Shown: one piece after another, positions 3,080 to 51,454 of the stretch
Layout: every line of letters starts with the position of its first letter
Numbering within the stretch: position 1 is the stretch's first letter
Source: Mobula birostris
Taxonomy: Eukaryota
Reading direction: 5' to 3'
Assembly (NCBI RefSeq): GCF_030028105.1
Contig: NC_092391.1
Coordinates: 8,591,223-8,655,222 of the forward strand
Length of the DNA stretch: 64,000 nucleotides
Notes under the pieces: generated by a model
The model's database searches: none
Told to the model about the DNA's origin: nothing
The model's input: the letters and a program-made list of their open reading frames with translations, nothing else
Position numbers and translations under genes: made by a program

Positions 3080-3178
3080 GACACAACACAGCGGAGGAAC
3101 TCAGCAGGCCACACAGCATCTATGGTAACGAGTATAATCGACGTTTTGTGCTAGACACTTCATCAGGACTGGAAAGGA
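3080..3178 (-). mobile_element. Penelope-like element terminal fragment with decayed hammerhead motif
   Basis: GGAGGAACTCAGCAGG...CAGCATCTATGG...GACGTTT...CTTCATCAGGACTGG matches the terminus of the 39735-41814 element. Confidence 0.8.
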
Positions 3179-33768: not shown

Positions 33769-33910
33769 CATAGAACCCGTAGACTTGAGTAATCTGCCTG
33801 CTTTCATGATTTCCTCTGAGGAGTGTAATGCGATCAGGCCATTTTGCTTTCAATGCGAGGAGGTAGGTAAAAGTTTCAAGACTGTAATACCCTCTGTCCA
33901 CAAAGTCACC
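33769..33910 (-). CDS. PPP6C: PPP6C exon 4 (GDFVDRG...LRGNHE...YGFY)
   Basis: TAG|GGT acceptor, G|GTAATT donor, 142 nt. PPP signature motifs GDFVDRG and RGNHE. Confidence 0.98.
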
Positions 33911-36546: not shown

Positions 36547-36642
36547 CTGCCCATGTATGTCCCCACAGACTGTAACAGGTGTAGACACTGGCTGGACATT
36601 AGACTCTTCCAAAAGCAAGTCACATACATAGTCACAGAGTCG
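36547..36642 (-). CDS. PPP6C: PPP6C exon 2 ([32 protein letters not shown])
   Basis: TTTCAG|CGA acceptor, CAG|GTAAAT donor, 96 nt, GDIHGQ motif. Confidence 0.98.
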
Positions 36643-37462: not shown

Positions 37463-39273
37463 AAAGACTGGTAAAGACAAATGTAGGTCCCCTACAGACA
37501 GAAACAGGTGAATTGATTATGGGGAGCAAGGACATGGCAGACCAACTGAATAATTACTTTGGTTCTGTCTTCACTAAGGAGGACATAAATAATCTTCTAG
37601 AAATAGTAGGGGACAGAGGGTCCAGTGAGATGGAGGAACTGAGCGAAATACATGTTAGTAGGGAAGTGGTGTTAGGTAAATTGAAGGGATTAAAGGCAGA
37701 TAAATCCCCAGGGCCAGATGGTCTGCATCCCAGAGTGCTTAAGGAAGTAGCCCAAGAAATAGTGGATGCATTAGTAATAATTTTTCAAAACTCTTTAGAT
37801 TCTGGACTAGTTCCTGAGGATTGGAGGTGGCTAATGTAACCCCACTTTTTAAAAAAGGAGGGAGAGAGAAACCGGAGAATTATAGACTGGTTAGCCTAAC
37901 GTCGGTGGTGGGGAAACTGCTGGAGTCAGTTATCAAAGATGTGATAACAGCACATTTGGAAAGCAGTGAAATCATCGGACAAAGTCAGCATGGATTTGTG
38001 AAAGGAAAATCATGTCTGACAAATCTCATAGAATTTTTTGAGGATGTAACTAGTAGAGTGGATAGGGGAGAACCAGTGGATGTGGTATATTTGGATTTTC
38101 AAAAGGCTTTTGACAAGGTCCCACACAGGAGATTAGTGTGCAAACTTAAAGCACACGGTATTGGGGGTAAGGTATTGATGTGGATAGAGAATTGGTTAGC
38201 AGACAGAAAGCAAAGAGTGGGAATAAACGGGACCTTTACAGAATGGCAGGCAGTGACTAGTGGGGTACCGCAAGGCTCAATGCTGGGACCCCAGTTGTTT
38301 AAGATATATATTAATGACTTGGATGAGCGAATTAAATGCAGCATCTCCAAGTTTGCGGATGACACCAAGCTGGGCGGCAGTGTTAGCTGTGAGGAGGATG
38401 CTAAGAGGATGCAGGGTGACTTGGATAGGTTGGGTGAGTGGGCAAATTCATGGCAGATGCAATTTAATGTGGATAAATGTGAAGTTATCCACTTTGGTGG
38501 CAAAAATAGGAAAACAGATTATTATCTGAATGGTGGCCGATTAGGAAAAGGGGAGGTGCAACGAGACCTGGGTGTCATTATGCACCAGTCATTGAAAGTG
38601 GGCATGCAGGTACAGCAGGCGGTGAAAAGGGCGAATGGTATGCTGACATTTATAGCAAGAGAATTTGAGTACAGGAGCAGGGAGGTACTACTGCAGTTGT
38701 ACAAGGCCTTGGTGAGACCACACCTGGACTATTGTGTGCAGTTTTGGTCCCCTAATCTGAGGAAAGACATCCTTGCCATAGAGGGAGTACAAAGAAAGTT
38801 CACCAGATTGATTCCTGGGATGGCAGGACTTTCATATGAAGAAAGACTGGATGAACTAGGCTTGTACTTGTTGGAATTTAGAAGATTGAGGGGGGATCTG
38901 AGTGAAACGTATAAAATCCTAAAGGGATTGGACAGTCTAGATGCAGGAAGATTGTTCCCGATGTTGGGGAAGTCCAGAATGAGGGGTTACAGTTTGAGGA
39001 TAAAGGGGAAGCCTTTTAGGACTGAGATTAGGAAAAACTTCTTCACACAGAGAGTGGTGAATCTGTGGAACTCTCTGCCACAGGAAACAGTTGAGGCCAG
39101 TTCATTTAAGAGGGAGTTCGATATGGCCTTTGTGGCTAGGGGGATCAGAGGGTATGGAGGGAAGGCTGGGGCAGGGTTCTGAGTTGGATGATCAGCCATG
39201 ATCATAATAAATGGCGGTGCAGGCTCAAAGGGCCAAATGGCCTACTCCTGCACCTATTTTCTATGTTTCTATG
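37463..39273 (+). mobile_element. 5'-truncated young CR1 LINE; RT ORF (37821-39182) joined to 37453-37839 by a 1-nt frameshift
   Basis: QHGFVKGKSCLTNL, YLDFQKAFDKV, GVPQGSMLGP and KFADDTKL; (TTTCTATG)n tail. Confidence 0.95.
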
Positions 39274-39734: not shown

Positions 39735-41814
39735 CGCAAACATGAGGAAATCTGCAGATGCTGGAATTTCAAGCAACACACATAAAAGTTGCTGGTGAAC
39801 GCAGCAGGCCAGGCAGCATCTCTAGGATGAGGTACAGTCAACGTTTCGGGCCGAGACCCTTCGTCAGGACTAACTGAAAGAAGAGCTAGTAAGAGATTTG
39901 AAAGTGAGAGAGGGAGGGGCAGATCTGAAATGATAGGAGAAGACAGGAGGGGGAGGGATGGAGGCAAGAGCTGGACAGGTGATTGGCAAAAGGGATATGA
40001 GAGGATCATGGGACAGGAGGCCCAGGGAGAAGGTAAAGGGGGAGGGGGGGGAATCCCAGAGGATGGGCAAGGGGTATAGTGAGAGGGACAGAGGGAGAAA
40101 AAGGAGAGAGAGAAAAAGAATGTGTGTGTATATAAATAAATAAATAACGGATGGGGTACGCGGGGGAGGTGGGGCATTAGCGGAAGTTTGAGAAGTCAAT
40201 GTTCATGCCATCAGGTTGGAGGCTACCCAGACGGAATATAAGGTGTTGTTCCTCCAACCTGAGTGTGGCTTCATCTTTACAGTGGAGGAGGCCGTGGATA
40301 GACATGTCAATGGGAATGGGATGTGGAATTAAAATGCGTGGCCACTGGGAGATCCTGCTTTCTCTGATGGACAGAGAGTAGATGTTCAGCAAAACGATCT
40401 CCCAGTCTGCGTCGGGTCTCGCCAATATATAGGAGGCCGCATCGGGAGCACCGGATGCAGTATATCACCCCAGCCGACTCACAGGTGAAGTGTCGCCTCA
40501 CCTGGAAGGACTGTCTGGGGCCCTGAATGGTAGTGAGGAAGGAAGTGTAAGGGCATGTGTAGCACTTGTTCCGCTTACAAGGATAAGTGCCATGAGGGAG
40601 ATCGGTGGGGAGGGATGGGGGGGGGCGGGAGAGAACGAATGGACAAGGGAGTCGCGTAGGGAGCGATCTCTGCGGAAAGCGCGGGGGGGGGGGAAGAGGG
40701 AAAGATGTGCTTGGTGGTGGGATCCTGTTGGAGCTGGTGGAAGTTACGGAGAATTATATGTTGGACCCGGAGGCTGGTGGGGTGGTAGGTGAGGACAAGG
40801 GGAACCCTATTCCTAGTGGGGTGGCGGGAGGATGGAGTGAGAGCAGATGTGCGTGAAATGGGGGAGATGCGTTTGAGAGCAAAGTTGATGGTGGAGGAAG
40901 GGAAGCCCCTTTCTTTAAAAAAGGAGGACATCTCCTTTGTCCTGGAATGAAAAGCCTCATCCCGAGAGCAGATGCGGTGCAGATGGAGGAATTGCGAGAA
41001 GGGGATGGCAGTTTTGCAAGAGACGGTGAGAAGAGGAATAGTCCAAATAGCTGTGAGAGTCAGGAGGCTTATAGTAGACATCAGTGGATAAGCTGTCTCC
41101 AGAGATAGAGACAGAAAGATCTAGAAAGGGGAGGGAGGTGTCGGAAATGGACCAGGTAAACTTGAGGGCAGGGTGAAAGTTGGAGGCAAAGTTAATAAAG
41201 TCAACGAGCTCAGCATGCGTGCAGGAAGCAGTGCTAATGCAGTCGTCGACGTAGCGAAGGAAAAGTGGGGGACAGATATCAGAATAGGTTTGGAACATAG
41301 ATTGTTCCACAAACCCAACAAAAAGGCAGGCATAGCTGGGACCCATACGGGTGTCCATGGTTACACCTTTAGTTTGGAGGAAGTGGGAGGAGCCAAAGGA
41401 GAAACTTTTAAGAGTAAGGACTAATTCCGCTAGACAGAGCAGAGTGGTGGTAGAGGGGGACTGGTTGGGTCTGGAATCCAAAAAGAAGCGGAGAGCTTTG
41501 AGACCTTCCTGATGGGGGATGGAAGTATATTGGGACTGGACATGCATGGTGAAAATAAAGTGGTGGGGGCCAGGGAACTTAAAATCATCGAAAAGTTTCA
41601 GAGCGTGAGAAGTGTCACGAACATAGGTAGGAAGGGATTGAACAAGGGGGGGATAAAACCGTGTCGAGGTATGCAGAAGTGAGTTCGGTGGGGCAGGAGC
41701 AAGCTGAAACAATGGGCCACCCTGGACAGGCAGGTTTGTGGATCTTGGGTAGGAGGTAGAAACAGGAAGTGCGGGGTGTGGGAACTATAAGGTTGGTAGC
41801 AGTGAATGGGAGAT
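39735..41814 (-). mobile_element. 5'-truncated Penelope-like retroelement (RT + GIY-YIG endonuclease) with 13-bp TSD
   Basis: RT motifs (YLLPKIHK, QTKGVTM, LRYVDD, PFLD) in ORFs spanning 40957-41914. GIY-YIG VIYCIRCSRCGLLYIGETRRRLGDRFAEHL at 40307-40501. CCATTGTTGTTGA duplicated at 39722-39734 and 41815-41827. Confidence 0.95.
39835..39872 (-). ncRNA. Minimal type I hammerhead ribozyme motif in the Penelope terminus
   Basis: UAGUC-CUGACGA-A-GGG-UCUCGG-CCC-GAAA-CG-UU-GACUG: stem I UAGUC/GACUG, stem II GGG/CCC, palindromic ACGU helix III. Confidence 0.75.
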
Positions 41815-42726
41815 CCATTGTTGTTGAATTGAGTTTGTAATAACTGATGTGGAATGACTTATTACCTTCACACTTGATCAATCTGTATTCTGACTCACGG
41901 ATAACAAGACCCAAAAACAGCAGATGAATAGAGAAGCCACTAAAAAATAAAAATCCTCATTCAAACTATCAAAGGACATTACTTTAAAATTAAATTCCTT
42001 CAAATTTGTACAAAACACAATCTGTACACTAGGATGAATGATCTATCATGAACAAATTATTTGAATCAGAGGTACAGAGGAACAAATTTATGCAACGGTA
42101 GAGTGTAAGATTGCAAGACTATTCGATTATGGTTGATTTATTATCATTCTCAACCTCATTCTCCAGGCTTCTTCCCATAACTTTTGATGCCCTGACTAAT
42201 CAAGAATCTATCAAACTCCACTTTAACTATAGCAAATGACTGGACCTCCACAGCTGTCTGCAGCAATGAATTCCACAGATTCATCACCCTCTGGCTACAG
42301 AAATTCCTCATCTCTGTTCTAAAGTCCCAGACTCACCATTACAATTCTAGCCATGTACTTCAGAAAGGATATGAAGGTTTTGAAAAATTACAGAAGACTC
42401 TTTCAAGTATGTGTACAGGAATGAGGAATCATTGTTAAGTTAATGGAATAGCTGGTGCGTCCCGGAAGCAATATGATTGAGGTATTTGCATATTAAAATA
42501 AGGACAAATGAAAAACAAATTAAGATTTCGACTCACTGAATAGTCATTAACCACATTCAATACACTATGAACTAATTGGATTAAGAACCAGAAATAACAT
42601 GAGGAAAATACTTCCTCTATACACATGGGTCAAGTGATAATGAAGTAATTGATTCAGCCTCAATAGAAAGCAATTGAATAAGCAGAATCAGGTTTACTGG
42701 CATGTTGTGAGCTATGTACATACATC

Positions 42727-43275
42727 TACTGATGCTTCTGGACACATCTTCAGTGACGTTCCTGGAATCATCGGGTGTTTCGGGTCTTTCAACATCATAC
42801 AACCTCCTCCAGGTGACCCAGCCGGGGCTGATCAGACCCCAGCTTGTGTCCAGATGGCTAGCTACTTATGACTCCATGGCTGCCCTCTTTTGAGTCACAG
42901 CCATCTTGAGGCCCTCTCTGCCGCATCGGTGGTACTGCAGATGGCTCTCCTCTTCCCCTCTCCCTCGATGCCCAAAATGCTGAAGGCTCTAACTAAGGAA
43001 CGGGCTGCGAATCCCCTACAACCACCCTCCACTGGGAGATACCTCATTCTCCATCCAGCCTGCTGACAGTTGCTGACCAGTCCTGCGTACTTGGAGAGCT
43101 TCCTTTCAAAGGCCTCTTCCAAGCTATCTTCCCATGGGACTGTCAGCTCCAGCAGCACCACTTGCTTAGTAGACCAGACACTAGGACAATGTCTGGTCGC
43201 AGGGTGGTGGCTGCGATATGGTTGGGGAACTTCAGCTGCCCTTTGAGGTCCACCAACAGTTGCCAGTCCCTTGCA
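42727..43275 (-). mobile_element. R2-Hero/NeSL-type non-LTR retrotransposon 3' fragment (restriction-like endonuclease end + 3' UTR)
   Basis: ORF 42895-43326 contains LLELTVPWEDSLEEAFERKLSKY...PVEGGCRGF...AERASRWL, the PD-(D/E)xK RLE C-terminus typical of Hero elements. Confidence 0.85.
42741..42804 (-). ncRNA. Candidate non-circularly permuted hammerhead ribozyme
   Basis: GGUUG-UA^-UGAUGUU-GAAA-GACCC-GAAA-CACCC-GAUGAUUCCAGG-AACGUCA-CUGAAGA-UGUGUC: CUGAnGA, GAAA and GUH cores with all three helices present. Confidence 0.6.
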
Positions 43276-44942
43276 GAGGGATAGCAAAAAAGGAAAAAAA
43301 AAGTGAGGTAGCAGTGATTGGTTCATTGTCCATTCAGAAATCTGATGACAGAGGGGACAAAGCTGCTACTGGAACATTGAGTGTGTGTCTTCAGGCTCCT
43401 GTAACTCATCCTTGATGGTAGCAATGGGTAATGGGGATCCTTAATGATGGATGCCACCTTTTTTGGGGACATCACCTATTGAAGGTGCTCTTGATGCTGG
43501 GGAGGTTACTGCCCATGACAGAGCTGGCTTAGTTTACAACTCTCTGTAGCTTTCTCCAAACCTGTACCAGACTGTGATGCACAAGGAGAAAAACATTGCA
43601 AGAATACAGCAAAAAATATTTGGAACGCACCTTCAAAGAGTTGGCACTTATTTAGTTAAGCCAAAAGAACCACCGTGAAATGTTATGCCACAAATAGCCA
43701 TGAGCTACATATGGCTTTCAGGAATCTCAGGTAAATTTAAGTGAATGTCATTAAGCACAAAGACTAATTTATATGACTTTGTGCTTGTTACCCAAAAAAA
43801 GTGAATTTTGACAAATTTGGAATTGCTTTATTTTCTTGGTTAGTGAATGATGATCCAAGGAAAGTAAAATCAGTAAATGTACCCGTGTTGTGTACATGTA
43901 TAGAAGATGCCTTCAACCAGAATTAGACTACATAGGTTAAAGTAGTGTTATTATATGCCTAGTACTATCCTAAGGAAATGACAAAGTATTATGAAATGCT
44001 CTAAGTTATGACCCACCCACAGAGAAAGATTTGGGAACATAGCCAAAAAAATTGGCTGATTTCTTGTTTCTAGAAATTGAAATATACCTATTTATCTTCT
44101 CAGAGGCTATGCGGAATACATCCACAGAGAATAATTAAGTGCAAACACTTGGCAAAACTAGATATTGAAATATGCCAATGCAATAAGTTAATAGATGTTT
44201 CTACCTCTCAGCTTGAATGATTTTGATATATTCTACCATGTTGAGTAAAAGAGGCTGAGATGTTCTTTAACAATTATGTCCCCTATCCTTGAATAATTTT
44301 AAATCATCCAGTGTTATTTTTAATTTAGTAAGAATCCCCTCCGACAACCTTTCTGAAGATGTGAAATATTATCACAAATCAAACTTGAACGCATTCCAAA
44401 CATAAAACATTAATCCAACTTCTGTCTGGATGCAAACTCGATCCAATTCAGAAAGTAATCGAAAACAAGAGTGAACGCTTCTTGTTTGCAGAGGAATGAA
44501 AAGCTCCAAAAGGTTCTTCCGGCTAACTCCAAACAAACAAACTAAAAAAGAAACAGCGTCCCTCCTTAAATCTTCGCCACCAGCAGACACCGCACAAATT
44601 TAACTACGCGATCATGACTTCCTGTTGTCTTCAGAGACGCTAGTTTAGACGGAGAGCTGTTCATTGGCGGTACCCTCGACCAGTGAGGATGGGCGGTGTT
44701 TATGCAAGGCTTTTTTTAAATCTGGGATAAGTCCAGGGGCAAGACTAATGGTCGACGCGGTGAGCCAGCTGCCCTCATTCTCCTTATAAAGAAGAGCTCA
44801 GAGCAACCGCACAGGGCCTCAGATACAAGGCAGAGCCCCAATTTGACAGCTCGCACGAGTTCACCCGCCAGCCAAAGGCTAGCACGGCCGACCAGGAAGG
44901 CGGGCGTGGAGTTAAAGGAGGAGGAAATGCACAACTCGTTAC

Positions 44943-45017
44943 CTTCAGGTCATTTTCCGGGAGATACTTGCACTGCCGTGCTATCTCCACATACTTGTCC
45001 AGGTCCAGAGGCGCCAT
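44943..45017 (-). CDS. PPP6C: PPP6C exon 1 coding part ([25 protein letters not shown])
   Basis: AAAATGGCG start context and AAG|GTAACG donor. The exons sum to 918 nt = 305 aa + stop, as in vertebrate PPP6C. Confidence 0.98.
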
Positions 45018-45360
45018 TTTGGGACACTGACTGAACGGCCCCTCCGGGCCGGTGACGCGTTTCCGGTCCTCTCGACCCTCCCGATTCCCACCGCCGCCGC
45101 GGCACTCCGCTTTTCCCGACTCCTGCCGCTGCTCGCCGATTCTCCCGACTCCCTGCCGGCCCAATCGCTCACTCGGTGGTGGCCGGCTTCCCCCTTTTCC
45201 GGTTCCCTCGAATCAACGCCGCTCTCTGATTGCCTCACGCGCCGGGCGCCTCCTTCTCCATTGGTCACCGCGGGGAGGGGCGGGGGTGAAAGTTCAGGGG
45301 TCGCCGATCGTCGCAGCAGCGCCGGCGCAAGGCGAGGAGTTGGCATGGAGCCGTGAAGGT
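45018..45360. promoter_or_regulatory. Bidirectional CpG-island promoter for PPP6C and RABEPK, including non-coding RABEPK exon 1 (donor GTAAGT at 45361)
   Basis: CpG-rich ~44560-45370. CCAAT near 45161, ATTGG near 45260, GC box GGGGCGGGG near 45277. No other CpG island precedes the RABEPK ATG exon. Confidence 0.75.
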
Positions 45361-46794
45361 GTAAGTACCGCATAATAGAGAAAAAAAACAGATGTGGGAA
45401 ATCTTGACCACACACAAGATGCTGGATATCGGACGGTATCTATGGTGGGGAATAAACAGGATTGAAAAGGAAGTGGGTAGAAAACAAAGAAAGAAGGTGG
45501 GGAGGGGGTGGTCCTCTTACCCCTTCTCTTCCCCTGCTCATCACCTCCCTCTGTTTTCCCACCTCCTTTTCTTTATTCCATGGTCTATTCTTCTATTGGA
45601 TTCAGCCCTTTAGCTCTTCCACCTACCTCCACCCAGCTTTTCACAACATTTTCCCTCACCTGGGCTTCCTGCTTACTTTTAAGCCAATTTCCTTCTAGTG
45701 CTCACCTATCACATGGTCCATTTCTAGTTCCTGTCTTGATCTTAGCCACAAACAAGCATTACAAGTCAGCTTTTTGTGGATGGAACTCCTGGCCTTTCAC
45801 TCCTGGACACTATATAAATTCTCCATCGTTAGGTAAGTTGTTCTTCCATCTGTATTAGAACTAGCCATTCCTGCATTCACGCAGTTGTGATTTCAGGCTC
45901 AGCTTTTCTCTCTTTATTACTATAACCAGTCCTGCCATCAGCAACACCTAACACAGACAAAGGAGAATAGTCATTCTCCAACTGCACCATTAATACTATT
46001 AATGGTACCCATCACTCTCCAAATGACCCTCTGGGCACATAACCACAGTCTTGCGATCAGTAACTCCTTATGCAGACAAAGGAGCATAATCACTCTCTCG
46101 TATCTCCCTTAACCAATTTGACCTAGATCCCCTCTATCATAGATAATTCCTTTGTCTCATCCATTCTTCTATCTTGTTCTCCTTGAATTACCTTTCTTTT
46201 ATGTCTCCCAGTTCTGCCAGTGATCTCTGATCTGAAACTTTTAACAGCTGCTTAGCCTATTGAAAATTTCCAGCATTTTATGTTTCTGTTTCAGATTTCC
46301 AATAACTACAATTTGTTTATTTTTCTTTTGAAGGAGAGGAGTTGTATTATTCCCTTGACCTGGTATTCATTGAGGGATCACTATAGAGAGGAACGATTTT
46401 GATCAGGCATAGGGACGATCCTTCCACTGAATGGAAGAGGAACTAGGTGGTGTTGCACCAGATAAACTGTACAGAACTTTGTTGATTAGGGCTACAAGAT
46501 AGAGTACACTCCACCCACCTCTTTTGGAGTTTTCAGTAGGACCAGAAGATTTAGCAACAGAATGAGGCCATTGTGCTATTGAGTCTGCTCTGCATTCAAC
46601 CAAGGCTTATAACTCTTTCTTAACACAATTCTCAACGTAACCTTTAATGCCCTAACTAATCAAGAACCTATCAACTCTGGTTTAAATAGCTTGGCCTCCA
46701 CAGCCACCTGTGACAATGAATTCTACAGATTCATCACCCTCGGGCTAAAGAAATTCCTCCTCCTCTCTGTTCTGAAGTACAGCTATCTGTTGCA

Positions 46795-47690
46795 ACCAGA
46801 TTGAAAGTACATTTATTATCGAAGGATATGTACAGAATATGACTCTCAGATGCGTCCTCCTGCAGGCAGCTATAAGCAAAAAAGAAGCACTGTGGAACCT
46901 GCTCAAGAAAACACAAACGCACGAAAAATGAACAAATTGTGCAAATGGCAAAAAGCGAGTAAACAACACATAGAATATGAAACGTCAAACCAGCAGTATT
47001 CAGTTTAGTTCAGTTCAGTACCACTCTACTACTAGCCCGTACAGGCCACAATGCCATTCTTCACCAAAACAGCCCAGTCCGCATCCATCGTCCCGATCAA
47101 CCCGCTCAGACAGCTTAAAAAAAAGAGGAACCAGAATCCAGGAGCACGTGTGAAATATACCTCAAAGCCTCCCAAAGTGAGTCCATGGCCTGGCAACGTG
47201 GATCCCAAGACTCCTGCCCTTCCCTCCGACAGCAGCTAGCAAGAGGGAGAGGAGGATCGGTCAAACATAAGCAGACGGCGCTGAGCACCCACCTGTCCTT
47301 CGCTCTCGTCCTCATTGACTTTACCCTTGCTCAACAACTCAATTGGAGAGAGGCACCGGAGTCGATCATGGGCTCGTACCCTTAATGCTTCAGTCAGAGA
47401 GAAGCAATGGAGTCGATCATGGGCTCCTGCTCTGTCTCCAGGCTTCCAGGCCACCAGGCCACACACACTCCACTCCAAACCTCATCAAACTCCCTCGGAG
47501 ATGGCAAAGAACCAGATCACACAATCAGCCCAAAAAACACATCATCAAAATGTAAATTATAGGTTCCAATCACACACAGCGTAGTAGTAGAATCATATTT
47601 GAAAGGACAAGAAGTAAAATAAGTTGTTTCGTGAACTGTCTGCAGGACATCACTGTTGGTCATGTCCCCTGACGCTATCTTGACCACCCA
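46795..47690 (-). mobile_element. Non-autonomous LINE-dependent (Rex1/Babar-tailed) element inserted in a CR1 fragment
   Basis: AATAAATGTACTTTCAA 3' end and CAAGATAGCG 5' end. CR1 sequence lies on both sides (46545-46780 / 47710-47810). Internal direct repeat GGAGTCGATCATGGGCTC. Confidence 0.55.
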
Positions 47691-47819
47691 ATGGCTATTC
47701 ACCACCCAAATTCATTTTCATCTCTGTTCTAAAGGGGAATTTATTTATTCTGAGGCAGTGTCCTCTGGTCCTAGGCTCTCCTCCCACTACTGGAAACATC
47801 CTCTCTGAGGTGGGGAAGG

Positions 47820-48044
47820 GCGAACGTCAACTCAGACCATGAGGGGCCTGTGTCGGGCATTTTCATGCCTTACAAGGCGCAGATTGGAAGTATGTGTGGG
47901 GCGCCACTCCTCGCACAGACACTAGAGCAATGTGTGATTGAGTGCCTTGCTCAAGGACACAAATATGCTGCCTGCCACAGCTGAGGCTCGAACTAGCGAC
48001 CTTCAGATCACTAGACGAACACCTTAACCATTTGGCCATGTGCC
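47820..48044 (-). mobile_element. tRNA-derived CORE-type SINE
   Basis: A box TGGCCAAATGG, B box AGTTCGAGCC, CORE-like GTGTCCTTGAGCAAGGCACT. Confidence 0.75.
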
Positions 48045-48499
48045 TAACACTAAGGTGATCCCCCAGTAAATATCAAGGGAATCATGCAGCCCCTCATCTT
48101 CAAGTGTCTATTCTATCCCGTACTCACTTTTTCTCTATTAATATTGCTAAGGTTGATAGCTAGACGTTAGCACATTGGTATTTATAGGAGGTGGTTGAAT
48201 GCAAATTGTTGTATATTTCCTACATTTCAATTCCAAAATAATCATTGGCTTTGAAGAACTCTTGAGGTTATGAAATGTGTAACAGGAGTGCACTTTTTAA
48301 TGTCAGTGTGATTTTGTTTTGAAGTACAAAGTATTGTAATAACACAGAAGTTTAGATCTCCAGTATGCTACATGATAGAAGAATTTCAGTTTCATGTTTT
48401 AATCGATTTGGGAATTAATTATGAGACATTTTATACATGGAACACAAAAGGGTAATTGCCTACTGACTGCTCATTTTATTCCAGCTTTCTCAAGTGGTT

Positions 48500-48552
48500 A
48501 TGGGTTTGTTGCCTGTCTTGGAGCCAGACGAAATTCCCCAAGGAGCAATATG
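48500..48552 (+). CDS. RABEPK: Rab9 effector protein with kelch motifs (p40), first coding exon (MGLLPVLEPDEIPQGAIW)
   Basis: Acceptor TTCCAG at 48484 and TG|GTAGGA donor. Matches the RABEPK N-terminus LPVLEP. Confidence 0.92.
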
Positions 48553-48639
48553 GTAGGATCTCAGTGCATTTGTATCCTTTGACTATCAGTGATCAGATTA
48601 TGATCAATTGGCTATGTGATCTAAATCATTTCAATGACG

Positions 48640-49919
48640 ATAGGTTCTGGTTAATTGGTCCATTGGTTAATCGGGACAGCTGCTTATTTGGGGCAACTCT
48701 TAGATAACAAAAAGTAATAAAGTAATTGAGAAAATAACCAGGGTTCCTTTTGTTTACTTGGGACACTATGCTGCTGAATTGAGATAGGAGACTCTTGTCA
48801 CACAGCTTCTAATGAGCATCAGTCATGTGAACTTATGTCACCATTGAACAATTAGAGTGAACAGTTTTTAAATTATGTCATTTGCCTGTCTTTTGTGTTC
48901 AAAAAGCAATGGTATTTTGGCACGAATGATAAGAACTAAGCAGTAAGGCCACTGAGAGTTGTTTTGCTCACTGTGGTTTCAAGCATTCCGGCTTAGAGAT
49001 GCCAGGAATGGCCAGGAATGAAAATGAAACTGTTCCAAGTTAGGGATGATGAAGAATTTGAAGAAAAGAATAATCACTTTGAATGTGATAAGGAAAATGA
49101 AGATTTGGATGATGCAGTCATCAGAAGTATTGTATGAAGGTTATCCATTATCTGCATGAGGTGTTTGCGCTAATTTTGTTGAATTAATTGAACACTGCAG
49201 TCCTTCGTATCCGAGGATGACGGTGAAGCCTGTGCAGGAGAGTTTTTGAAGTGGAAAAGCGGTTGCACTGGGACTGTTCCACTCTCTCGACCTGGGAAAT
49301 CCCGGTCCGGTGGTACAAGTAGCCATCACAAACTGGAGTCTTTCTTGGCTGCAGAGGATAATCATGGCTTATTTTGTGTCTTTTCATGCTCTTTCCTCTC
49401 TATGAAGTGTTGCTTGGCTTCTTGATTGTTGGATCTCATTATTGATCTTTGACTTCACAAGCTAAGCAAGCATGTCCCTAACTCATCGGTTTAGCTGATT
49501 TAGCTGATCAAAGCGGTATGGCCTTCAAAGGGGTGTGGCTGCTGTCGCATACAAACAGCTACTTTGAGCCACAGGTGAGAGTTGAGTGTTTGATGGGAAC
49601 CCAAGGTGACTGAGCTGCCCCAGAATGAATAGGACAAGCCCTTCCAGCAGTGGTGCTGCCCTTCCCTGGATGGCCCATACATAACAGTGTACACTGCATG
49701 AACTCCTCCGCTGGTAGCTATTAGGAACTGATGACCAGTTTTGTAGTACTGTAATATCATTGGTAATGTTGTAATTTGTTCTGTATTTTATTTAAATACA
49801 TGCATCATTACTCAGTCTTTTTTTAACTCTTTCCTTGAAACCTTGGCTAACTGGGGCAGCCACTTAAATGGGCCAGAATGAACTGGTCCTGATGTGTCCC
49901 AATTAACCAGAAACCACTG
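48640..49919. mobile_element. Tigger/pogo-like MITE interrupted by an RTE-derived element (~49190-49680, minus)
   Basis: Right TIR CCCAATTAACCAGAAACCACTG followed by TA; degenerate left TIR GGTTCTGGTTAATTGG. Confidence 0.6.
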
Positions 49920-51454
49920 TATACCTAATCAATATGTTCAGCTTCCAATTTATTGTCATTCAACTGTACACATGTACATAAACAAAAAAAAAATTCGTCA
50001 GGAGTCAAGGTACAAAACAGTACACTATATATTACATACAGCACATAAAATAATAGCAGGTTAAAAAGTATTTCTCTGTTCTCTATGTACTAGTTTTAGA
50101 ATGATATTTAAGTATTACAAAATATTTTTTAACAAAATATTTCCAAGGAAAGTACTATAAGGTTATACAAATAAAAAGAATGAATTGATTGGTTTCCCTT
50201 TTCTCTTGAAAAGAGGTTGAGGAATATAGAAAAGATATTGGAAGATTTTGATAGGGAAGGTAGAGAATACAATAGAAGAAAACAACGTTCAGGTAAACTG
50301 TCCAGAACTTAATCCGACAAGGGTGACAAAATGAATTCCATTCTGCCTATCCCACTATTAGTTTTCAGTACTTGTTTTGTTTTCTTTCTTGAATCTTCAC
50401 TTTGCACAATTCCACAAATTCAAGTCACCTTCTAATACCTCACCAAAGGGCCTATTATTAATGCTCCAGTAAAATTAATGCTTAAGGGTAAACAAAATGT
50501 TCTACCAGAGAGTCTGCCGTAGCCAAGAACAATTCTTTTTTTTAACGTGGAATCTATCCATACCTCTGATTCCACAAATTCTGTAAATTATCAGGAATTC
50601 TCTGGTCATTTGAAATCATGGAGTCTGAATTCCCCATGCCAACCAAGTTACCTTCTTGAGCTCGTCCCATTTGCTTGTGTTTGACCCAGACACCTTTTCT
50701 ACCCATGAACCTGTCTTGAATATTGTTATTATACTTGTCTCTATCACTTACTCTGACAGCTCGTTTCATCTACCCACTACCCTTTGTGTGAAAAATATTG
50801 TGACCACCTTGTAAATGCTCCTAGCAATTATACACCTCTCTAGGCTGCCTCACGACAGAGGAACAATGGCCCAGCTTATCGAGTCTCTCCTTTATAGTTC
50901 AAGCCCTTTGGTTCTGGTATCATTGTTGGTGAATCTTTTCTGCACCCTTTCCAGCTTAATGACATAATTTCTAAAGTTAGGTGGCTAAAATTGCACACAG
51001 CATTCTAAATGAGGTCTCACCAATGACTTATACAGTGGTAACATCATATCCTGATGCTCTTGACGGAAGAAGGCTAACGAGTCAAAATCTTTCTTCACTA
51101 TCCTGACTACCTGTTGTCAGCACTTTCAAGGAACTATGTACTTGTATCCTGAGGTCATAAAACTCTGACTTCTGAAAACCATTAGATCTCAGTAGGAAAA
51201 GTTTGATCTTTATTATGAAGAATACTATTGATCAATTTGCTGATCGTTAATTTGAATGGATCAAATTTACATTTTTGTGGTATTGGCGAATCTACTGCAT
51301 GTTATTGTAAGGAAAGATGTGAGCTTTATTTGTCACATGCATTGGAACATTGAGAGATACAATGAAATGCGTTGTTTGCTTCAACAACCAATGCAGTGCG
51401 AGGATGTGCTGGGGGCAGCCCGCAACTATCGCTATTTTTCCGGCGCATAGCTAC

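Follow-up and report, generated by a model that had tools for sequence, protein, structure and literature searches.

Introduction

For Penelope-like elements, it has been proposed that transcripts are cleaved, ligated into circles, and reverse transcribed over more than one unit (PMC4209133), and an internal start of reverse transcription was shown for one of these elements (PMC11167929). Like the Hero copies described in this work, Penelope-like elements and animal retrozymes are partial tandems, with a hammerhead in each terminal repeat (PMC4209133, PMC11167929, bioRxiv 10.64898/2026.07.22.740005). Their hammerheads are of type I, minimal, and often dimeric, whereas the Hero motif is a non-circular permutation that fits in cis, and they encode a GIY-YIG endonuclease or no protein, whereas Hero belongs to the R2 superfamily and has a C-terminal restriction-like endonuclease. 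The 5' HDV-like ribozymes of R2 and RTE elements share with our proposal for Hero that a self-cleaving RNA frees the template from a longer transcript, but they differ in their HDV-like fold, in being found at the 5' end only, and in serving a linear template without a terminal repeat (PMC13580325).

With regard to the ribozyme itself, Eckert et al. (2023) defined the hammerhead blocks S, G, and C and validated type SGC in vitro; their type-SGC examples came only from metatranscriptomes, and none from the genome of a known organism (PMC10085705). The GUA triplet is found in natural hammerheads (PMC1636495), and hammerheads with helix II shortened to the single G10.1-C11.1 pair still cleave well (PMC544870). 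The Hero endonuclease has been treated in PMC9004415. In the openly searchable literature, we found no ribozyme in Hero elements, no report of the sequence described below, and no cause for the tandem habit of these elements.

Here, we analyzed a 64,000-nt stretch of the Mobula birostris genome (the window). A sequence-only reading of it had reported a rearranged hammerhead on the minus strand, in the 3' UTR of a Hero element, and had suggested that its cleavage may define or process the template's 3' end.

Results

The Hero element and its families

The location of the motif in the 3' UTR of a Hero non-LTR retrotransposon was confirmed, and the element is high-copy, with at least 1179 candidates found by DNA and at least 10294 by protein in the 4.0-Gb host genome. 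The window contains a 5'-truncated copy of family A, which was compared with the full-length copy L247 over the 3' end of the latter (Table 1). The family stop codon is the TAA at 42868-42866, and the window copy stops earlier, near 42895. Long copies encode a reverse transcriptase and a zinc knuckle (Pfam RVT_1 and zf-RVT), and the family A ORF ends in what we take to be a restriction-like endonuclease motif; a single ORF with reverse transcriptase, zinc knuckle, and C-terminal endonuclease is a feature of the Hero clade and is present here. The flanks of the copies were unrelated, i.e., there was no fixed target site. Groups of copies with identical flanks (L035 and L054-L060; L164/L165; L210-L213; L180-L183) correspond to segmental duplications and not to independent insertions.

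The proteins of families B-E were about 40-65% identical to that of family A over the aligned pieces, and the protein tree of the families was built without an outgroup. The relatives of family A were teleost and lancelet proteins, the latter being 62-63% identical to it. The pufferfish proteins Q7T1J8_TETNG (66% identity) and Q76IN2_TAKRU (62% identity), presumably Zebulon and HEROFr, probably belong to the same protein clade, and the Zebulon study is said to have described partial tandem arrays of the pufferfish elements. The family A protein was 84-87% identical to proteins of several teleosts, and the other families of the host genome were far more distant; judged from these protein sequences, family A possibly arose by horizontal transfer.

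In metagenomes, three Hero loci were found by protein search (86%, 64%, and 49% identity), two of them with the whole motif and one with the 3' part of the motif ahead of the ORF. Viral contigs contained neither a Hero locus nor the motif, and prokaryote genome contigs contained fragments or distant proteins only, without the motif. Two short contigs of a bacterial assembly (L175 and L177), 73% identical to the Hero protein, are likely animal DNA contamination. The start of the 5' UTR (reverse complement of L061, 2110-2200; L173, after the motif) was found to carry short CAGTGAC/GGTGAC repeats, alike in families A, C, and D and in L173; these lie beside the priming site and might be a protein-binding or promoter element.

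Conserved fold of the RNA domain

All the minus-strand letters reported for the motif were found at their positions (Table 1), with the predicted cleavage site between 42798 and 42797. The reported extent, 42741-42804, was too small, since the conserved domain spans 42737-42854 (118 nt). To describe it, we used an alignment of 38 natural copies from seven families, from which L224, L219, L229, L217, and L221 were left out for motif deletions. Families B-E were located by a search pattern fixing GAAAGACYCGAAAC and most of block C; the search pattern covered GACCCGAAAC and block C, and GGGUC, CCUGG, CCAGG, P0, hairpin b, and the S block lay outside it. With N7 set to letters other than A, the pattern gave 187 matches in the host genome, families B-E among them.

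The alignment supports six mutually compatible helices, each paired in all seven family majorities. Together, they comprise 39 pairs, with 92.5% of the cells paired (29-43% when slid) and two-sided changes at 11 pairs. P0 was paired in 90.5% of the cells and was present in the MFE and RNAalifold structures too, and the pair adjoining the CCUGG/CCAGG helix covaries (G-C in 25 copies, A-U in 8). The distal stem II helix, GGGUC/GACCC, is invariant and, therefore, shows no covariation; a search for a family with an altered GACCC gave 10 matches, all of them scattered point changes. Since the whole UTR is highly conserved, conservation on its own is a weak argument. An interaction helix placed downstream, GAUGAUUC/GAAGCAUC, was dropped, as it was not conserved across families. 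The loop of hairpin b (42835-42829, minus strand) contains the palindrome UGAUCA in 7/7 family majorities, and this is a candidate kissing loop for RNA dimerization, compatible with frequent template switching.

The hammerhead core in non-circular order was supported within this domain. The core letters C3 U4 G5 A6 N7 G8 A9, G12-A15.1, and U16.1 H17 were present in the window and in 7/7 family majorities, their conservation in families B-E being partly fixed by the search pattern. N7 and H17 were free, as had been predicted, and were the only core positions varying between U16.1 and G10.1: N7 is A in the window, U in five families, G in L173, and C in L219/L220, and H17 is A in five families, C in two, and G in no family majority. 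Stems I and III adjoin the core as expected for a hammerhead. The 7 bp proposed for stem I held for six of them across families and failed for the seventh, which is U.U in families C-E; the G-U pair seen in the window belongs to a minority of copies, ACAUCA being the majority form. Covariation had been expected in stems I-III and was detected in stem III (two compensatory pairs, in one sequence each), and stems I and II were without two-sided changes. In stem III, 90.5% of the cells were paired and two of five pairs had changed on both sides, and the commonest family A copies showed a U.C mismatch. Stem II could not be kept as drawn: its second pair was unpaired in 38/38 aligned copies, another was broken in 12/38, only 72% of the cells were paired, and perfect partners for both strands were found upstream of the reported motif. 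The strand order had also been thought to call for either a pseudoknot or pairing in trans or as a dimer; a dimer was not necessary, as all helices fit in cis.

Table 1. Coordinates, within the window, of the Hero copy, the RNA domain and its core letters, and the host gene.
Feature	Positions	Strand	Remarks
5'-truncated Hero copy, family A: ORF end and 3' UTR	42710..43279	-	571 nt, 94.7% identical to L247
ORF remnant, endonuclease C-terminus	42866..43279	-	149 other copies share 86-96% identity
P0 5' strand (closing helix, pairs with 42745-42737)	42846..42854	-	6/10 pairs changed on both sides
Hairpin b, 8 bp	42820..42844	-	two-sided changes at 3/8 pairs; 93% paired
GGGUC, true partner of GACCC (distal stem II)	42815..42819	-	5/5 pairs in 7 family majorities; 94.7% of cells
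Stem I-II interaction helix, 5' strand CCUGG	42809..42813	-	5/5 with CCAGG in 7/7 family majorities
Predicted k-turn, non-bulged strand (4n, 3n, G2n, A1n)	42805..42808	-	G and A kept in 7/7 family majorities
Block S, first half: stem III 5' strand, U16.1, H17=A	42798..42804	-	alignment
Stem I 5' strand (pairs with 42759-42754)	42792..42797	-	96% of cells paired, no two-sided change
Block G: GACCC, G12-A13-A14-A15.1, CACCC	42773..42786	-	alignment; partly fixed by the pattern in families B-E, free in L171 and L172
Predicted k-turn, bulged strand (3-nt bulge, G1b, A2b, 3b, 4b)	42766..42772	-	alignment
Interaction helix, 3' strand CCAGG	42761..42765	-	alignment
Block C: stem I 3' strand, C3-U4-G5-A6-N7(A)-G8-A9, extra U, G10.1	42745..42759	-	
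P0 3' strand	42737..42745	-	first G may pair with C11.1 (42782) after one migration step
3' tail: small hairpin and reverse transcription start site	42710..42736	-	85-88 nt past the cut
GGUUG	42804-42800	-	letters as first reported
U16.1-A17	42799-42798	-	letters as first reported
UGAUGU(U)	starts at 42797	-	letters as first reported
GACCC	42786-42782	-	letters as first reported
GAAA	42781-42778	-	letters as first reported
CACCC	42777-42773	-	letters as first reported
ACGUCA	42759-42754	-	letters as first reported
CUGAAGA	42753-42747	-	letters as first reported
Extra U	42746	-	letters as first reported
GUGUC	from 42745	-	letters as first reported
Phosphatase gene, exon 1	45017-44943	-	
Phosphatase motifs	GDIHGQ near 36564; GDFVDRG/RGNHE near 33900; HGGLSP 30288; SAPNY 29289	-	

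Junction, k-turn, and relation to type-SGC hammerheads

GUGUC and GGGUC, like GACAC and GACCC, differ at one place each, so the junction of P0, hairpin b, and the distal stem II could migrate by one step. These helices are predicted to meet in a four-way junction behind G10.1-C11.1, and a one-step branch migration would produce the canonical A9-U-G10.1:C11.1-G12 core. The migrated junction was paired equally well in the alignment, and its four letters are invariant, permitting exactly one migration step. The G10.1-C11.1 pair, the one pair before the junction, is possible in 36/38 copies and competes with P0 and GGGUC/GACCC. ViennaRNA gave -34.0 kcal/mol for the unmigrated and -21.4 kcal/mol for the migrated state, a gap of 12.6 kcal/mol calculated with core stacking outside the energy model. 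In addition, an alternative hairpin, ACAUC/GAUGU, can mask block C.

Between stem III and the interaction helix, the sequence matches the k-turn consensus, with a 3-nt bulge followed by tandem G.A/A.G. This was found in 7/7 family majorities, with C:G at -1b:-1n (U:G at -1 in family B); 3b:3n is U.G, C.C, or C.U, and each family majority has 3b=C or 3n=G. All three 3b:3n combinations are allowed by the k-turn consensus and folding rules (PMC8191799). Eckert et al. considered the lack of a sharp reversal in the SGC path hard to account for (PMC10085705), and a reversal of this kind, required by the S-G-C path, would be given by the predicted k-turn.

The blocks follow one another, 5' to 3', as S, G, and C, and this order is the published type-SGC permutation (PMC10085705). 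As in HRIMA-1, there is an extra U after A9, stem I has the letters AUGU/ACAU, the interaction helix is directly reached from stem III, and CCAGG precedes stem I; as in active HRIMA-1, a 5-bp stem II is followed by one purine and then by the helix that connects stem I with stem II. In Hero, CCUGG/CCAGG, placed as in HRIMA-1, provides the tertiary contact of stem I with stem II that is typical of hammerheads. In contrast to HRIMA-1, the distal stem II and interaction strands of Hero precede block S on the 5' side, the RNA following A9-U-G enters a separate covarying helix with a hairpin (the four-way junction), stem III is connected to the interaction helix by the k-turn consensus, and stem I has 6 bp. 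Block C of Hero is interrupted, as the strand after CUGAnGA pairs in P0, which makes the motif a type-SGC variant and not a member of HRIMA-1; according to Eckert et al., inserted letters beside CUGAnGA never rise above one or two in any hammerhead alignment, and their descriptor needs N7=U and a continuous stem II, so the Hero motif would be missed (PMC10085705).

Ends of the copies

Full-length copies carry a second motif at the 5' end, i.e., they are partial tandems, and families C and D, like L173, have the 5' repeat too. The 3' end was joined seamlessly to the 5' UTR in 119 copies, this seamlessness being partly built into the search pattern. Ninety junction copies were mapped, L125 giving no alignment and standing outside this set: 59 pass through the cut site, reaching up to more than 1.1 kb into the preceding unit, 3 stop within 3 nt of the cut, and 28 stop after it. 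Hence, of 62 informative copies, 59 cross the cut site without interruption, and the upstream half of the 5' ribozyme is complete in 52/90 junction copies. L062 had hinted at an accumulation of 5' ends at the cut, but none was seen among the 90 copies (p 0.14-0.48 against background). The density of 5' stops was 0.0045-0.0071 per nt between +73 and the cut and 0.0009-0.0037 before the cut, a difference of about twofold. A linear 5' end at the start of the 5' UTR was likewise rejected, as there was no pile-up; 8 of 26 extra copies stop at 88-104, and 18 of the 26 are junction copies. Among 106 flanks, none was shared beside a breakpoint or inherited from a parent copy, except for one segmental duplicate.

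The 3' ends were uniform, with 54/61 true ends lying within -2 to +1 of one position, about 86 nt past the cut. Of 23 distinct copies selected by ORF (30 loci), not one has its end at the cut; by BLAST, the end lies 85-94 nt beyond it in 20 copies, 2 continue into the next unit, and 1 ends before the motif. The suggestion that cleavage defines or processes the template's 3' end has in its favor the location of the motif in the 3' UTR, but with 0/23 copies ending at the cut and most true ends about 86 nt beyond it, this function was ruled out, and we leave it hardly any weight.

Linkage and concordance between the repeats

In 100 junction copies, markers 200-300 nt before the cut were linked to markers after it (p 3e-5 to 6e-3). 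Moreover, in 42 full-length copies, the 5' and 3' repeats share 44 minor non-CpG variants, compared with 8.35 by permutation (0/5000); in the concordance set, 6/40 fetched 3' ends were without a partner. The concordance was partial: the two repeats share site 69 in 3 copies and differ at it in 6, and -44G is discordant in 7/7. A strict circle from one molecule was, therefore, rejected as too simple, the repeats being often discordant. Linkage across the cut, together with partial concordance and discordance, points to a template that behaves as if it had no end and, at the cut, no seam, switches from one molecule to another being frequent. Concordance could also stem from gene conversion between repeats. 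A ligated RNA joint has the same sequence as a tandem genomic copy, so contigs without ends make no distinction between them.

Many internally deleted copies of 0.85-1.3 kb carry both repeats (L230, L234-L236, L239, L240, L244, and L256-L269), with right breakpoints clustered near unit position 3106 and left ones at 640-820. Nineteen such copies showed no 5'/3' concordance (3 versus 1.3, p 0.12). The same deletion joint is present twice in L236, L256, and L257, and, in L256, the two laps differ at haplotype markers, with breakpoints that are hot spots. These copies are possibly retrozyme-like non-autonomous derivatives or products of template switching.

Discussion

The Hero 3' UTR domain is probably a working hammerhead. 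By analogy with the cut-and-ligate processing proposed for Penelope elements (PMC4209133), a circular-template model fits the data best, and we assign it a probability of about 0.5. The type-SGC-like hammerhead fold would cut read-through transcripts of partial-tandem copies at both ends. The ends of the cut unit may then re-pair through about 24 bp (P0, stem II, the interaction helix, and stem III) and be ligated, and the re-joined unit, about 3.6 kb long, would be a circular RNA, copied for more than one round by the reverse transcriptase of the element. The copies show that reverse transcription starts about 86 nt past the cut and crosses the cut site; on a circle, this start would be internal, and frequent template switching between RNA molecules may mix body haplotypes and yield the 1-kb deleted derivatives.

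That the resemblance to a hammerhead is due to chance is highly improbable. The S-G-C descriptor was composed after the motif had been seen, and no Rfam hammerhead match at E ≤ 10 was obtained within 40000-50000 of the window; both points would suit a chance resemblance. Against it, the relaxed descriptor gave a single match in the 64-kb window, at the motif, and 0 matches in 300 first-order Markov resamples on both strands, and the motif is kept across seven families, with proteins about 50-65% identical to that of family A. A more serious alternative, although still unlikely, is a catalytically silent fold, perhaps a ribozyme descendant, in which the core is kept inactive by P0 and GGGUC/GACCC in their unmigrated form and the domain serves the reverse transcriptase as a docking structure. 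The best-covarying helix, P0, does occupy the strand meant for stem II, the energy favors the unmigrated state, every copy was reverse transcribed through an intact cut site, and reverse transcription starts just downstream of the domain. However, a docking fold gives no reason for the free variation of N7 and H17 amid invariant neighbors, for the lack of a G at H17 in any family majority, for core strands that each adjoin the right helix, for an interaction helix like that of HRIMA-1, or for four invariant junction letters that permit exactly one migration step.

An active hammerhead could also serve a linear template, its 5' copy cleaving to form the RNA's 5' end, with the 3' copy kept inactive; the reverse transcriptase would jump in register from the 5' to the 3' repeat, on the same or another RNA, and generate partial tandems without a circle. 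Frequent jumps are indeed seen in the partial 5'/3' discordance and the many deleted copies, the density of 5' stops is roughly doubled from +73 to the cut, two copies (L062 and L113) have their start at the cut, and R2 uses a 5' ribozyme (PMC13580325). Nevertheless, stops at the cut (3/62 copies) did not exceed background, which would demand a jump efficiency of about 95%, the 5' blocks show marker linkage across the cut, and no RNase H domain was found. We regard this linear scheme as improbable, marginally more so than the silent fold. The overall proposal that Hero elements, protein-coding LINEs of the R2 superfamily, replicate via a circular RNA made by a ribozyme, whose hammerhead architecture (S-G-C order, four-way junction, and k-turn) is undescribed, is tentative and stands slightly below even odds.

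A vertebrate genome is now seen to harbor thousands of copies of a relative of the type-SGC hammerhead, which also occurs in Hero elements of other samples. If the proposal is true, cellular genomes would have their first well-supported hammerhead family with a non-circular permutation, and circular replication would explain the partial-tandem structure of Hero. If the domain cleaves, the hammerhead architecture would be widened to include a junction right behind G10.1-C11.1 and an internal k-turn, which would explain why descriptors miss it. How partial-tandem retrotransposons regenerate their terminal repeats thus becomes a directly testable question. For LINEs with a restriction-like endonuclease, the group now used for gene insertion, a template that is circular and primed internally would be a novelty.

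Genomic surroundings of the window copy

Intron 1 of a gene for a PPP-family Ser/Thr phosphatase (45017-29200, minus strand; Table 1), which we assume to be PPP6C, contains the Hero fragment in sense orientation. A PDB search with exon 1 of this gene gave no match. If active, the Hero ribozyme could cut the phosphatase pre-mRNA. Two other elements were observed nearby, a reverse transcriptase fragment of another LINE at 37818-39182 on the plus strand (Pfam RVT_1) and a broken element at 40307-41784 on the minus strand, which is without a Pfam match and which we take to be Penelope-like from its appearance.
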